This document shows, one piece after another, positions 40,184 through 45,976 of a stretch of 64,000 nt of DNA. Position 1 is the first letter of the stretch. The number at the start of each line of letters is the position of its first letter. The position numbers were made by a program, and so were the translations under genes. Below the pieces are notes generated by a model. The model was not told where the DNA came from. It did no database searches and saw only the letters and a program-made list of their open reading frames with translations. Source of the DNA: an uncultured Nitrososphaerota archaeon (GTDB taxonomy: Archaea > Thermoproteota > Nitrososphaeria > Nitrososphaerales > Nitrosopumilaceae); NCBI GenBank assembly GCA_963701075.1, contig OY969559.1, positions 1,504,001-1,568,000 of the forward strand, written 5' to 3'.

Positions 40184-40912
40184 TTAATTATATTGACTGA
40201 AAGAATTCAGTCTCTTCCCGCTAGACTTGTTCTGGAATACTTTGGTTATTTGCTCAAATATACGATATGCACTTACCATGGCTTCTGCCTTACTTTTGTC
40301 CCCTACAGCGTTACTCTCTACAATTGCATATCTCGATACTATCTTGAGGTTGACTTGGAACTTGTCACCATTAGTCCATTGTAACACATATCCTCCGTCT
40401 CCATCTATCAACCCTATCCAGCGTAAATTACCAAACCATTTTCCAACAAGCTTGTTTACAATTTCTTCAACCTCCACTGTATTAGGGATGTATAACTGAA
40501 GCACCTGAACAAACTGGTGTTGTTTAGATACTTTTCTAGACAAGTTCTCAAGGTCCAGTTTTGACCTCTTGACTAGAATTGACCTAAGATTCTTGCTTGG
40601 CCTATAACCTACTGCGCTTTTCTCTACGAGACCAGAATTTTCTAACCTATGCAAAGATCTTGAGAGGCTTTGTTGATGCATTCCCAGTTTTCTTGCAAGA
40701 CCATTGAAGGTATATTGGTTATCAGATAAATCATTGTCTTGGTTTAATATTGACAAAACTTTCTTGTCATTTACCTGAAAGTCATCAAGTGATATCCCAG
40801 AAGCGTCATCAATTATGAGTTGCACTATCTTGTCGTTTACCGTTATCTCTTTTTCTTCTGTTTTGTCCTCTATTTCAGTCCTGATTTCTTTGTTTTCCAT
40901 TTTTTCTATCAC
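40184..40912 (-). CDS. winged-helix DNA-binding protein
   Basis: YTFNGLARKLGMHQQSLSRSLHRLENSGLVEK. Confidence 0.85.
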   Translation of the reverse strand: MIEKMENKEIRTEIEDKTEEKEITVNDKIVQLIIDDASGISLDDFQVNDKKVLSILNQDNDLSDNQYTFNGLARKLGMHQQSLSRSLHRLENSGLVEKSAVGYRPSKNLRSILVKRSKLDLENLSRKVSKQHQFVQVLQLYIPNTVEVEEIVNKLVGKWFGNLRWIGLIDGDGGYVLQWTNGDKFQVNLKIVSRYAIVESNAVGDKSKAEAMVSAYRIFEQITKVFQNKSSGKRLNSFSQYN

Positions 40913-40928
40913 ATAGTGAGCTTCTTAC

Positions 40929-41204
40929 TTATTTAAGGATAGGCAACATTATAGCGCTATCTTCCTGTCTTGTTACTATTTTTGTTAAAGATTTGTACAG
41001 TATGTTTAGTTTATTTTTTCTTGATCTTGTATTTCTTGAGCTTAGCCTTAATTTATTATTGCAACACGGACAGCGATGCAAAGGATATGAGTTTACGTCG
41101 ATGAAAACACTGCATACAGAGCACGGCCTTTGTCCTGCCACAAATCTAAACCCACCAGATGGCCTCTTTGCTGCAAACCTATTGCAAATTCCTTTACATC
41201 TCAA
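40929..41204 (-). CDS. Cys-rich zinc-finger protein
   Basis: CKGIC...CSVC...CPCCNNKLR pattern typical of thaumarchaeal small proteins. Confidence 0.8.
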   Translation of the reverse strand: MRCKGICNRFAAKRPSGGFRFVAGQRPCSVCSVFIDVNSYPLHRCPCCNNKLRLSSRNTRSRKNKLNILYKSLTKIVTRQEDSAIMLPILK

Positions 41205-41393
41205 AAATTATCATCTTCTTTTTGACACATGTAAAAATGCACATAATTTGGTTGGATGTGACATTGATAAAGTGACTAATAGTCAATGAACCTAGTCACA
41301 TATACCGCAGATAAAGGCATCAGCGTAATGAAATCACTATGAGTTAAGAACTACTGGAACTCTTGTTTTTCTAATTTTATTCGAATTAGGAAG

Positions 41394-41507
41394 TCATTTG
41401 CATTTGCATTCAACGCAAGTACAACCGCTTCCACAAGTACATTTGCCTCCCTTATCGCATCCGCAAGTAGTTTTGTGTTGTGCACCGCATCCGCATTGTT
41501 TTACCAT
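41394..41507 (-). CDS. metallothionein-like peptide 1 (37 aa, 10 Cys)
   Basis: MVKQCGCGAQHKTTCGCDKGGKCTCGSGCTCVECKCK*; five CxC pairs. Confidence 0.88.
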   Translation of the reverse strand: MVKQCGCGAQHKTTCGCDKGGKCTCGSGCTCVECKCK

Positions 41508-41547
41508 GTGTGATTAATGAGTGAAGTGTTATATTCGAATATAGCAG

Positions 41548-41565
41548 ATTATCATTTTTGATAAT
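41548..41565. promoter_or_regulatory. ATTATCA-N4-TGATAAT operator upstream of metallothionein 1
   Basis: Perfect palindrome 41 nt from the ATG; variants at 44303 and 45216. Confidence 0.7.
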
Positions 41566-41699
41566 GACTTTTATGATTGTACACATATAAATAAAAAAAA
41601 TAAATATTTTTCAATAACCATAAAAACAAAGTTATTTTTATTTTCAAACACGATATTGTACCATGATGTTTATAGCCTGCCTTGTGACGTATTAATCAC

Positions 41700-42002
41700 A
41701 TGGCAAAAACTAGAAGCCTTGCAAGTCATGATAAGCTAAAACGTGAACACCTTCGATTGAGACAACAACATGAAAAATTAAACAGAGAACATCAAAAATT
41801 ACGCAAAGAGCATGAAAAATTTCATTTGGCTTTGTTAAAACATCACAAAGAACATGAAAAACTACGCAAGGAACATCAACAACTTTTGAAACTTCATGAA
41901 AAACACCATAAAATGCATGAACAGCATCATGAATCTCATGAGATTCACCACAGAAAACATGATGCCCATAAAAAAGGACATGCTAGATTTCATAGAAGAT
42001 AA
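41700..42002 (+). CDS. histidine-zipper coiled-coil protein (23 His in 100 aa)
   Basis: His at residues 10, 17, 24, 31, 38, 52, 59, 66, 73, 80, 87, 94. Confidence 0.85.
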   Translation: MAKTRSLASHDKLKREHLRLRQQHEKLNREHQKLRKEHEKFHLALLKHHKEHEKLRKEHQQLLKLHEKHHKMHEQHHESHEIHHRKHDAHKKGHARFHRR

Positions 42003-42007
42003 GTAGT

Positions 42008-44098
42008 TTAGATTCGCATTGGTTTGTATCTATTCAATAGTAGAGAATTGCTGATAACAGTTACAGAACTTGTTGCCATTGCACCAGCTGCAAGAAATGG
42101 CAAGATCATGTACACATGAGGGCCAAATATTGGAACAAGGGCACCAGCAGCAACTGGAATCAGAGCAGAGTTGTATACAAAGGATAAAAAGAGATTTTGT
42201 TTTATTTTTGATACTGTTTTTTTGCTCAATTCCATTGCCGTTACAACATCACGAAGATCATTTTTAACAAGTATGATGCCCCCTGTTTCTTTTGCAATAT
42301 CCGTTCCGCTTCCAAACGAAATTCCGATATCTGCCGCAGCAAGTGCGGGAGCATCATTTATTCCATCGCCCACCATGGCAACAATTTTTCCCTCTTCCTT
42401 TATTTTTCTAATGGTATTTTCCTTTTCTTGAGGCGATACTTCAGCAAGTACTCTATCTATACCAAGTTTGTTTGCAATTGTATTAGCTGTTCTTTTATTG
42501 TCACCAGTAAGCATTACTACCTGAATTCCATTTTTTTTGAGTCTTTGTATGGCTTCTTGCGCATAATCACTGATTGTATCCATCATTACAATTATTCCAG
42601 ATAATTTTTTATCTATGGAAACAATGACTGGCGTTTTCCCTTCTCCTTCAAACTCCTCCATCTTTTTATCAAGTGTTTCATCAATAGTAATTCCATTACC
42701 AATTATGAATTTTCTATTTCCAATCAATATCTGATGATCTCCGTATTGAGAGAATATGCCGCTGCCAGCAAATACTTTGAAAGAATCAGGTTCAGAGATA
42801 GGAATTCCTAATTTTTTTGCGTGTCTAACTATAGATTGTGCAAGCGGATGTTCGGAATTTTTTTCCGAGATTGCTGCTAGGCGCAAGATCTCGTTGTCAT
42901 CCATTCCATTTACTGAAAATACATCAGTAACTGAAGGAATTCCTTTTGTCAGAGTACCTGTCTTATCCAATACTACGACCTGAACCTTTCGTGCAATCTC
43001 AAGATTCTCTCCTCCCTTTATCAAAATTCCATTCTCTGCTGCTTTTCCAGCTCCGACCATCAAGGCAGCAGGTGTAGCAATTCCTAATGCGCATGGGCAA
43101 GAAATTATCACCACTGATACAAAAGCAAGAAGTGAGAATGTAATCCCAATTCCACCAAAAAAGAACCACCCTAGTGCAGAAATTAATCCAATTATGATGA
43201 TTGCTGGTACAAAATATGACGATATCTTGTCAGCAAGTTTTTGAATTGGGACCTTGCTTGATTTTGCTTCTTCTACAAGTTTTACTATCTGTGATAAAAC
43301 AGAGTCGTCTCCAATCTTGGTTGTTTTGAATTTAAAGGCTCCTTCTTTGTTGATTGTACCGCCAATCACTTCATCACCAGATTCTTTCTCAACTGGTATG
43401 CTCTCTCCTGTTATTGCAGACTGGTCTACAGAGGAGCTTCCATCAATTATGATTCCGTCAACTGGAATTTTTTCTCCAGGACGAACTAGAACGATATCAT
43501 TTAGCTGTACATTTTCAACTGGTTCATCTGTTTCTTTGCTATCTTTGATGACATGAGCTATGGTCGGTTTGAGATCTAGTAATTTTTTGACAGCTTTTGA
43601 TGCTCTTGTCTTTGTTCTGCTTTCTAGTAATCTTCCAATTAGCAAAAGCGTAATTATTATTGAAGAAGTTTCAAAGTACAGATCCCCCATTGGTAAAACA
43701 TTGTGCGCAAATGCTACAACAGTACTGTAACCCCATGCTGTTGAGGTTCCTATAGCAATCAAGACATCCATGTTAGTCATCTTGTGTTTGAACGCATCAA
43801 ATGTTCCCTGATAGAATCTCCACCCCAACCAGAACTGAACGGGCGTAGCTAAAGCAAAAAGTACGTATCCGTTAATCTGACGAGGTAATACGGAAATATA
43901 TGTTAACAAAACTATAGGAATTGTGAGTGCGATACCTAGAACGACATATCGCTTTAGTTTTTTAAGCTCTTTTTCTGGTGCAGCAAATTCATCAAGACAA
44001 CTCTTGCAACAAAAATAGTGTTTGGTTCCTTCTGTTTCATAGTTAAGGGATTGATCTTTTTCCTCAACAAACATTCCACAAATAGGATCTCTCGCCAT
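42008..44098 (-). CDS. copA: Cu(+)-exporting P1B-type ATPase with N-terminal YHS/TRASH domain
   Basis: DPICGM...YFCC..C, TGES, CPCALG, DKTGT, SEHP, GDGIND, YN and MATSS motifs. Confidence 0.96.
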
Positions 44099-44133
44099 TT
44101 TTGATCAACTATAAAGAAAAAATGAAGAGAGAT

Positions 44134-44262
44134 CTAACCGTGTTTTCCATGCTTGGGATCCCTACAATCCACACATGTACAATTACTTCCACAATCACAT
44201 TTGCCAGTTGTTTCACATTTGCAATGTGATTTATGTTGTGCGCCACAGCCACAGTTTGCCAT
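44134..44262 (-). CDS. metallothionein-like peptide 2 (42 aa, 9 Cys, 4 His)
   Basis: MANCGCGAQHKSHCKCETTGKCDCGSNCTCVDCRDPKHGKHG*; 35 nt upstream of copA. Confidence 0.88.
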   Translation of the reverse strand: MANCGCGAQHKSHCKCETTGKCDCGSNCTCVDCRDPKHGKHG

Positions 44263-44302
44263 GATTATCTTAGAAATCACTGGTTAATTAGGCTGTTCCT
44301 AG

Positions 44303-44320
44303 ATTTTCAAGTTTGATAAT
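44303..44320. promoter_or_regulatory. ATTATCA-N4-TGATAAT-like operator upstream of metallothionein 2 and copA
   Basis: ATTTTCA AGTT TGATAAT, 41 nt from the ATG. Confidence 0.65.
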
Positions 44321-44373
44321 TAATTCTGGAGTTGTACCAATGACGTTAAGATTACCCATGTAGAATCAATGAT

Positions 44374-44799
44374 ATGCAAAATGTGAGTTCCAGTATAGGA
44401 AAGAAGCCATTAGTCTATGCATACTTTATCCTATTCTCAATCATTTTTTTAGGAATAGTGTTTGTATTAATTTCACAATTGAACATGGCAACTGTTGACC
44501 AATCCTATTCCGAATCATCAGGTAAAATGATATCAAACGAAACAATGCCTGAGATGTCTGCCAATATGTCAGGTATGCATGGCATGTCTGGGATGTCTGC
44601 CAATATGTCAGGTATGCATGGCATGTCTGGGATGTCTGCCAATATGTCAGGTATGCATGGCATGTCTGGGATGTTAGGAATATCTTCAAATGAAAAAATG
44701 TCGATTTTTTTAGAATGGATGTTTATAATCACAGCAGGTTTGATAGGCATACCTTTTGCATGGGTTATCATAAGTGAAAGAAGAAAAAATTCCCGTTGA
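44374..44799 (+). CDS. two-TM protein with Met/His-rich loop (three 39-bp repeats)
   Basis: (MSANMSGMHGMSG)x3 between TM helices. Confidence 0.85.
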   Translation: MQNVSSSIGKKPLVYAYFILFSIIFLGIVFVLISQLNMATVDQSYSESSGKMISNETMPEMSANMSGMHGMSGMSANMSGMHGMSGMSANMSGMHGMSGMLGISSNEKMSIFLEWMFIITAGLIGIPFAWVIISERRKNSR

Positions 44800-44859
44800 C
44801 GGAATCATAATTGATGGAAGCTCCTCTGTAGACCAGTCTGCAATAACAGGAGAAAGCAT
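44782..44859 (+). repeat. 78-bp inverted copy of an internal copA segment (43398-43475)
   Basis: 76 of 78 nt identical to the reverse complement of 43398-43475. Confidence 0.9.
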
Positions 44860-44914
44860 CAGGGTCTAAAATCTGATTCATGACATAGATGGGCCTACCA
44901 GAACCGAACTTACA

Positions 44915-45172
44915 TCATGCTTTGACAGATTGTTTTGGATTGCTTTCAAATGGCCTTTCGCAATGGGGACATTGGGTGCTAGAATTAGTTCCACACATAC
45001 ATCTAGCAGACTGGAATGAATAAAAGACCGTTGCTACCGCCGTAAGTACCCCGGATAGAACTAAGAGTGCGAAAGCCCAATAGACTCCCATAATCAACAT
45101 TGATATGACCATGGTAAGCATTGCAACAGACATAACCAGCATCATTAGATTATCAGCAATGCCGTGAGCCAT
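44915..45172 (-). CDS. two-TM Met-rich protein with C-terminal Cys cluster
   Basis: CMCG...CPHC tail; operator-like GATATCA-TATT-TGAAATT at 45216-45233. Confidence 0.75.
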   Translation of the reverse strand: MAHGIADNLMMLVMSVAMLTMVISMLIMGVYWAFALLVLSGVLTAVATVFYSFQSARCMCGTNSSTQCPHCERPFESNPKQSVKA

Positions 45173-45374
45173 CTAACCCATACTTCGCATAACTCATATA
45201 AAAATATCATAGAAGGATATCATATTTGAAATTGAAATGAAATCAAACCATGAGATTTGCTGTAAAATTATCATTTTAAGCATGAAAATTTAGTCTTAAC
45301 AGATTCAGGTTTGATACATTTGATTGGTTTTACCATTTGAGTTCAAAACTAGGTGTTTAAGCAGAATATCTGGA

Positions 45375-45650
45375 ATGAGTGACATGTCTTCCACGACTCA
45401 AGAAAATCCTGCGATTCCTTTGGAATCAATTCCGATAATCATAGCTATTTTAATAGGATCGCCTTTTGCTTGGTATTCTATTCATGAAAGAAGGAAAAAG
45501 GAGGTGAATGTAGTGAAAGATCTAGTGTGCGGCATGGAAGTAAGTGAAGGAAAATATTCAACAACGTACAATGGTAAGAATTACCTCTTTTGCTGTGCCC
45601 ATTGCAAAACGACATTTGAAGGCAATCCAAAACAGTTTGTCAAAGAATAG
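45375..45650 (+). CDS. TM-anchored YHS/TRASH-domain protein
   Basis: KDLVCGMEV...YNGKNYLFCCAHCKTTFEGNP. Confidence 0.85.
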   Translation: MSDMSSTTQENPAIPLESIPIIIAILIGSPFAWYSIHERRKKEVNVVKDLVCGMEVSEGKYSTTYNGKNYLFCCAHCKTTFEGNPKQFVKE

Positions 45651-45976
45651 AGTAGACTCAGAATCCTGAGTCCACTTTAGAAACAGAGGCTCTACTAGGC
45701 ATGCTGCTAAATCATAGTACTTCTTCTAAAACCAACACCTATGATCTGAAAACATGGCAGACAGCAAATAGTGCTGAATTGATAAATAGACAGAAACTGT
45801 AGAACGGTGACCAAGAAACAGAGTTAGGGTACTGTCATCAATATAACTCGCCTACAGTTTCTAAATGAAAATGTATCTGATGATTAAATACATTTTTGGT
45901 ACAATTCCCAAAGAGAGTATAATAATTTAGATTAGAAATTAGTTTTCAATAGTGAGAATCACTTCGATGTTTTTTA

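Follow-up and report, generated by a model that had tools for sequence, protein, structure and literature searches.

In the passages of a review that treat SmtA, MymT and the Csps (PMC7558416), MymT of Mycobacterium tuberculosis is described as a cysteine-rich protein of ~5 kDa, encoded by a formerly unannotated open reading frame (ORF), which copper resistance requires and which is predicted to take up to six Cu(I) ions. For Nitrososphaera, the sections drawn on here of the transcriptome study of Reyes et al. (PMC7785015) name CopZ, CopT and Csps; in N. viennensis, copA2, copZ and copT form one cluster, and the proposed copper stores are Csps. Metallothionein is not mentioned in that study (0 occurrences), and Thermococcus gammatolerans encodes no metallothionein (PMC3407056). 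Here we analyse two small cysteine-rich genes, hereafter MT1 and MT2, together with the copper-ATPase gene copA that they flank, in an uncultured, ammonia-oxidising Nitrososphaerota archaeon from soil, of the family Nitrosopumilaceae (genome G000; assembly GCA_963701075.1). The genes lie in a stretch of 64,000 nucleotides (nt), positions 1,504,001 to 1,568,000 of the forward strand of contig OY969559.1; this whole stretch is called the window, and coordinates refer to it unless a genome or contig is named.

Based on the features described below, we consider it fairly probable that MT1 and MT2 are small cytosolic cysteine-rich proteins that would hold several Cu(I) ions in thiolate clusters, with MT2 serving CopA, and that they are induced under stress. 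Among the top-ranked titles and abstracts in the literature searched for metallothionein with archaea, Nitrosopumilus or Thaumarchaeota, no paper on an archaeal metallothionein was found, in agreement with the remark, made in a first-pass annotation of this DNA, that archaeal examples are barely characterised. To our knowledge, reviews call metallothioneins absent from Archaea; no printed statement to this effect was found in the review passages checked.

The two small genes and their make-up

MT1 (41394..41507, minus strand) is an ORF of 37 amino acids (aa) with 10 Cys and 1 His, and MT2 (44134..44262, minus strand; ATG at 44262) an ORF of 42 aa that contains 9 Cys and 4 His; Phe, Tyr and Trp are absent from both. 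An upstream GTG at 44280 would lengthen the MT2 frame, and the residues preceding the ATG vary among orthologues. Read along the minus strand, the order is MT2 (44262..44134), a 35-nt spacer, copA (44098..42008) and MT1 (41507..41394), with a convergent plus-strand ORF (41700..42002). Both genes are preceded, ~22-36 nt before the ATG, by an A/T-rich TATA-like stretch, as are other promoters of the regulon described below, and at that distance leaderless transcripts fit.

The nearest database relatives are unnamed or labelled "hypothetical protein". MT2 differs from the two orthologues in genome G121 by 11 and 15 synonymous and by 1 and 2 non-synonymous changes (omega 0.013 and 0.012, respectively), and from the orthologue in G188 by 14 synonymous and 7 non-synonymous changes (omega 0.05). 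Between MT1 and MT2 themselves, 13.8 of 18.7 synonymous sites differ, that is, synonymous change is saturated, and the cysteine frame is retained; MT1 matches the family profile with an E value of 2.8e-13. Synonymous changes far outnumber non-synonymous ones against the orthologues, which marks MT1 and MT2 as real genes on which strong purifying selection acts.

Cysteine makes up 21-27% of the two proteins, with five CxC motifs in MT1 and four in MT2, and eight cysteines are invariant over 26 family members. When the profile of these 26 sequences was run against 177,635 distinct PDB sequences, five matches were obtained at E <= 10, all of them metallothioneins with borderline E values (0.013-0.61): a human MT-1A fusion (0.013), the beta-domains of mouse MT-1 (0.015) and rat MT-2 (0.037), a fish MT (0.084) and the beta-domain of rabbit MT-2A (0.61). 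Four of the five are vertebrate MT beta-domains, and in the three best alignments the cysteines correspond column for column. The cysteine spacing of MT1, C-x-C-x5-C-x-C-x3-C-x-C-x2-C-x-C, is that of the vertebrate beta-domain, preceded by an additional N-terminal C-G-C. At E <= 1, no Pfam families were seen in any of the 26 members apart from Metallothio (PF00131; one member, E 0.027) and Metallothio_Euk (PF12749; two members, E 0.11). At the same threshold and in the same members, neither PF02069, which covers the bacterial SmtA/BmtA metallothioneins, nor, in the small proteins, the Csp family DUF326 (PF03860) gave a match. MT1 and MT2 reached no Pfam or NCBIfam cut-off and contain no HMA domain of the CopZ type (PF00403). 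The best ESM Atlas scores, 0.88 for an unnamed cluster and 0.87 for a Metallothio_5 cluster, both lie under the 0.9 level and are taken as leads only. Homology to any known metallothionein family cannot be claimed, because the scores fall under the Pfam cut-offs; by composition (size, cysteine content, lack of aromatic residues), MT1 and MT2 would qualify as metallothioneins.

The first-pass annotation had described two small cysteine-rich frames beside copA, one with 10 Cys and the other, 35 nt upstream of copA, with 9 Cys and 4 His, which share a metallothionein signature in divergent codons. The ORFs match this description exactly, the gap between the MT2 stop and the copA ATG (44099..44133) is indeed of 35 nt, and the divergence of the codons is borne out by the synonymous differences between the paralogues (13.8/18.7 sites). 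The signature too holds, in that size, CxC motifs, the 21-27% of cysteine, the lack of aromatics and the beta-domain cysteine register all agree with it.

Linkage to metal transporters and spread of the family

The gene copA (42008..44098, minus strand) encodes a 696-aa P-type ATPase of apparent P1B-1 type, in which an N-terminal YHS/TRASH-like domain stands instead of an HMA domain. It scores 604 bits with TIGR01511 (copper-translocating P-type ATPase; cut-off 397), and its Pfam domains are E1-E2_ATPase, Hydrolase (HAD) and YHS. Nine orthologues all retain residues C334-P335-C336, N635, Y642-N643, P648, M674 and S677-S678; these correspond to CPC, N-x6-YN-x4-P and M-x2-SS in transmembrane segments 4-6, which we take to be the P1B-1 Cu(I) signature in Arguello's classification. 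On TIGR01511 and these motifs together, the neighbour of MT2 is a predicted P1B-1 Cu(I) ATPase.

A small gene of the same kind lies 31-71 nt upstream in all four YHS-type CopA loci at >=82% identity (35 nt here, 34 and 31 nt in G121, 71 nt in G495). In G188, an ABM-domain gene stands between the small gene and an HMA-type CopA, and in G496 the small gene is separated by 322 nt from a downstream HMA-type CopA gene, which is split over two reading frames. On metagenome contigs the pair is repeated in three of the four distinct informative ones (L145, L146 and L150 type). Compiling the distinct informative loci, a P1B ATPase gene follows the small gene in 9 of 12, with no ATPase partner at MT1, in G335 or in the L147 type; three more contigs, too short to show such a partner, are outside the 12. 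Other accessory paralogues are placed 36 nt before a CDF gene (G496) or 80 nt after a CopD-domain gene (G475 and G469). The link to copper that had been proposed for the two genes is therefore supported by context, namely by the P1B ATPase gene directly downstream in 9/12 loci and by its Cu(I) signature residues. Only MT2 is placed functionally with copA, MT1 being solo.

How widely such genes were seen to occur depended on the query, single sequences giving far too low a count. MT2 alone retrieved one 41-aa protein from a set of 5.8 billion sequences and, from 200 other genomes of the family, matches in three. Those in G121 (two) and G188 (one), both of the same genus, are true; the match in G001 was discarded as false, as it falls within a large methylase gene that runs on the other strand. 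A six-sequence profile (A2) found one representative among 1.84 billion proteins, and added the G335 gene and weak matches, which turned out to be genuine small ORFs belonging to other subtypes. The spread became visible only with alignment A3, the profile widened with these other-subtype ORFs, which matched in 59/63 genomes of the genus (33/33 of the high-quality ones) and in 220/223 sampled Nitrosopumilaceae genomes, as against 0/177 genomes from 19 other families of the class, including 0/78 in family f3. These tallies take in five unpublished genomes (G335, G491, G404, G370 and G077). Hence the two genes are not isolated, but both are members of an accessory branch of a family found in 220/223 Nitrosopumilaceae genomes.

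The common or core form of this family is acidic, has 44-52 aa and nine Cys, and lies between genes for proteins of ~294 and ~490 aa; a hydrophobic segment opens the latter, and no Pfam family covers either neighbour. In the present genome, the core member is located at G000:C1:806794-806934 and a further paralogue at 830830 (G000:C1). Proteins of other genera, 455-527 aa long and with a hydrophobic start, also end in the nine-Cys domain, which follows a Thr/Pro linker (L071:2349-3716, L080:1888-3255 and L082:1984-3567). A tree built on only 47 columns sets an accessory clade, on a long branch, apart from the core and fused forms (support 97/95). This clade comprises MT1, MT2, their relatives and a "short type" of 35-37 aa, and the tree gives no firm order within it. 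Unlike the core members, the MT1/MT2 clade is basic rather than acidic, contains His, has a promoter site of its own and is transporter-linked; the basic, His-containing clade would have branched from a family whose core member is the acidic nine-Cys form. MT1 and MT2 represent a rare accessory clade in a few genomes of one genus, probably Nitrosotalea.

The short type (37 aa, ten Cys) occurs in 12 genomes (L021, L127-L133, L135-L137 and L139) and as a variant in two more (L022 and L134). In 10 of the 12 it adjoins an HxlR regulator gene and a gene for a 111-112-aa protein with a Cys-rich N-terminus, and its neighbourhood also holds a ThyX-like gene (9/12) and a DoxX gene; the two variant copies lie in different surroundings. 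A Nitrosotalea that has been cultured possesses at least the core form and the short type.

The promoter palindrome, the missing copper carriers and the rival readings

A perfect 18-bp palindrome, ATTATCA-N4-TGATAAT (41548..41565), is found 40 nt before the ATG of MT1, and a copy with one mismatch (44303..44320) 40 nt before that of MT2. The same operator had been reported at 41 nt from both starts, which stands in the sense that 40 nt intervene in each case. Genome-wide, the palindrome occurs at 16 sites with <=1 mismatch, compared with 0-4 for six shuffled half-sites, and at 74 sites with <=2 mismatches. Taking as an ORF start any ATG that opens a frame of >=35 codons, the centre of the site falls 49-50 nt from the start in 19 cases, whereas across 20-120 nt no other 1-nt bin holds more than 5. 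The genes behind the sites encode four Usp proteins, three CBS-pair proteins, HSP20, PAC2, a PNPOx-like protein, two cupredoxins, Nramp and an HTH_20 regulator, which may be the autoregulated factor of the regulon, its gene at G000:C1:490365 having the site in front of its own start; the Zn-ADH and FMN reductase genes have a site at 59 and 63 nt, respectively. Many of them are grouped at 1.109-1.145 Mb, and the sites outside the window are at G000:C1:1109000-1146000, 485787, 490365, 928351, 1174581, 1650362 and 1703400-1705300. Within the accessory clade, 12 of 14 genes have the palindrome at a gap of 38-41 nt, and the core gene is without it. Overall, the palindrome is real and functional-looking, and marks a general stress set of about 20 promoters. 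Its position just upstream of the TATA region is a frequent binding place of archaeal activators.

As a copper operator the palindrome was rejected, for it lies at the same distance before about 20 stress-gene promoters; being common to Usp, CBS, HSP20, cupredoxin and Nramp promoters, it is not copper-specific. Nor is it specific to these two genes. The fixed-distance palindrome defines instead a stress regulon, from which the logic of promoters in uncultured Nitrosotalea can be deduced.

A second element lies in the MT2-dsbD intergenic region, a TGTACCA box (44333..44339, plus strand) at -41..-35 of the start (44374) of a divergent gene of the dsbD-YHS type. A degenerate copy, TGTACAC (41578..41584, plus strand), is located 71-77 nt from the ATG of MT1, the same distance as that of the MT2 box. 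The box is found at -75..-77 of the MT gene in nine of 14 copA-type genes, that of MT2 being at -77. In the sections drawn on here, Reyes et al. (PMC7785015) give a motif with the core TTGWACYA before genes of N. viennensis induced by copper limitation, including a dsbD operon, and the box near MT2 matches this core.

Metal binding, a preference for Cu(I), a joint transcript, delivery to CopA and the sense in which the genes are regulated are inferences, which run as follows. MT2 and the CopA gene would most likely be transcribed together from a leaderless promoter, whose activity would be set by the palindrome, the centre of which lies about 50 nt ahead of the start codon. MT2 would hold cytosolic Cu(I), acting then as its buffer or delivering it to the CopA pump, and would take on the job done elsewhere by CopZ or Csp3, both of which are absent here. 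The module would be switched on with the general stress programme and not by a dedicated copper sensor, a proposal made because about 20 stress-gene promoters have the same palindrome.

The promoter data also suit a different function. MT1 and MT2 might be stress thioneins, that is, thiol-rich scavengers or Zn/Cd buffers that protect the cell in acid soil from oxidants or a mixture of metals, with no special tie to Cu(I) or CopA. The sharing of the promoter site with four Usp, three CBS, HSP20, PAC2, FMN reductase, Zn-ADH and Nramp genes points in this direction, as do the G496 paralogue that precedes the gene of a CDF exporter (Zn/Cd/Co-type) and the His residues present in the clade. We nevertheless hold it to be unlikely, given that the linked transporters are mostly Cu(I)-type P1B ATPases or CopD, that the copper-limitation box is also present in the intergenic region, and that two cupredoxin genes belong to the same regulon.

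A copper buffer would fill a gap in the inventory of this genome, in which no HMA domain (0; control positive in 14/14 genomes), no DUF326/Csp protein and no CsoR-family gene were found. Three YHS domains are present, one of them in a stand-alone 52-aa frame (G000:C1:1082628-1082753, minus strand). Csp was found in one of 114 Nitrosopumilaceae versus seven of 14 genomes of family f3. HMA domains occur in 28/114 Nitrosopumilaceae, among the matches listed all inside frames of 784-864 aa (CopA N-termini), and small stand-alone HMA frames were seen, among the matches listed, only in other families. Within these matches the Nitrosopumilaceae are largely without CopZ-type (stand-alone HMA) and Csp proteins, and the distribution of Csp and stand-alone HMA across the class is the reverse of that of the MT-like family.

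This inventory, read together with the tight pairing with the CopA gene that recurs in several loci, could also describe a chaperone for a single copper ion, MT2 being a substitute for CopZ that brings one Cu(I) to the YHS domain of CopA or to the membrane entry site; the genome is without HMA, and in Nitrosopumilaceae HMA is seen, among the matches listed, only in CopA-sized frames. Nine or ten cysteines in MT-like spacing are nonetheless far beyond what one site needs, copies also occur solo (MT1 and G335) or by CDF or CopD genes, and the genome contains the stand-alone YHS frame, which together make such a chaperone quite improbable. Very improbable indeed is a protein without a metal function (a disulfide-rich peptide, the precursor of a modified peptide, or a leader peptide tuning copA translation), which would fit the small size, the position right before copA and the lack of a confident fold, but not the purifying selection over the whole length, solo copies included, the lack of modifying-enzyme genes nearby and of a signal peptide, or the relatives in unrelated contexts across 220/223 genomes of the family. 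The leader peptide in particular was rejected because the relatives stand in contexts unrelated to copA.

The reading of MT1 and MT2 as multi-copper cytosolic thioneins has also to be set against a number of observations that weigh on the other side. The similarity to known metallothioneins lies below curated thresholds (both Pfam metallothionein matches are sub-cut-off, PF12749 with 12.9 bits against 22) and concerns a low-complexity cysteine spacing that can arise by convergence. AlphaFold2 with 26 aligned relatives gave no confident fold for MT2 (mean pLDDT 53.9, pTM 0.23), a poor model that is expected if the fold needs metal. As for the link to CopA, the more distant YHS-CopA loci (<=66% identity) are without the small gene in 11 of 11 cases; the G335 gene itself and two of these 11 loci (G335 and G077) come from unpublished genomes. 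In the 35-nt spacer between MT2 and copA there is a T6 run, at which archaeal transcription could end. MT1, located downstream of copA, is a paralogue that stands by itself, with no transporter gene 3' of it. Its orthologue on contig L154 (1290-1440) no longer has the palindrome and reads TGA in frame where the first C-G-C has its Gly; a pseudogene and a sequencing error are among the possible causes. In a search of sequencing runs the stretch was found in no RNA run; 14 DNA runs were listed, four of them with at least half of its words. The stand-alone YHS frame could be the copper chaperone instead, and the promoter agrees with a role in redox or thiol protection no less than with one in copper handling, because the regulon is a general stress set. 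The nine-Cys domain of the long fused proteins may lie or work outside the cell, since these proteins begin with a hydrophobic segment. Finally, the contrast in distribution between Nitrosopumilaceae and Nitrososphaeraceae is in effect a single phylogenetic contrast.

With these points in mind, we put forward as plausible, and more tentatively than the reading of MT1 and MT2 themselves, that Nitrosopumilaceae handle cytosolic copper by a metallothionein family of their own in place of CopZ and Csp, that these would be the first archaeal metallothioneins, and that they come in three forms. The forms proposed are a universal acidic core, a C-terminal fusion to long surface-type proteins, and mobile basic paralogues in CopA/CDF/CopD efflux modules, which in this proposal would be wired to the stress regulon via the fixed -50 palindrome. 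Nitrosopumilaceae rank with Earth's most abundant archaea and rely heavily on copper enzymes, and the MT-like family offers a concrete and cheaply testable candidate for their missing copper buffer. If this is true, Archaea join the domains known to have metallothioneins.

On the side of MT2 opposite to copA, its orthologues have a divergent gene in which, as judged from the Pfam domains of the intact form, a DsbD_TM membrane domain is fused to a YHS domain. In this genome the gene is broken (window 44374-45650), its first 46 and last 84 codons being left. When searched by tblastn with the intact G121 protein, the N-terminal remnant (44374..44511, plus strand; 46 aa) matches residues 1-46 with 74% identity, and the C-terminal remnant (45396..45647, plus strand; 84 aa) residues 292-375 with 88% identity, including the YHS domain (50.3 bits). 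The DNA between them contains tandem Met-rich repeats of 39 bp (44545-44674) and, in inverted orientation, a 78-bp copy of part of copA (44782-44859, corresponding to 43398-43475; 97%).

Some further features of the locus were recorded. The plus-strand ORF between copA and MT1 (41700-42002) encodes 100 aa, rich in His, Lys and Glu and coiled-coil-like, and may be a metal-binding accessory protein. A relative is present in one of 62 other genomes of the genus (G496, 84%) and on contig L154, and in G496 a fragment of this ORF lies a few kb from the MT/CDF/CopA locus. Downstream of MT1 (40184-41204, minus strand) are a 91-aa Cys-rich zinc-ribbon-like ORF with a weak Spt4 match and, at 40184-40912, a 242-aa winged-helix regulator (MarR/ArsR-like) devoid of Cys, which like the HTH_20 protein is a candidate for acting on the palindrome. 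No Rfam family reached its gathering score within 40800-45800.

Comparison with described copper and metal-binding proteins

In cysteine arrangement, the vertebrate MT beta-domain (PDB 1DFT, 2MRT and 2MRB; PF00131) is the nearest counterpart of MT1 and MT2, which share with it the register C-x-C-x5-C-x-C-x3-C-x-C-x2-C, the length and the lack of aromatics; in MT1 the register continues with a further -x-C. The archaeal proteins differ from it in their extra N-terminal C-G-C, in consisting of a single domain, and in the His residues of the accessory clade. CopZ, with its HMA domain, and Csp3, with DUF326, have the same job that is proposed for MT2, the holding of cytosolic Cu(I) beside a P1B exporter. 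They differ from MT1 and MT2 in fold and cysteine pattern, the small proteins described here being without an HMA or DUF326 signature. As regards MymT, pairing with copA is not described in the passages of PMC7558416 that deal with it, and a gene of the CsoR family, the regulator class of MymT, was not found in this genome. By description, MymT is nevertheless the closest analogue of the proteins presented here in size, in the history of its discovery and in proposed role.

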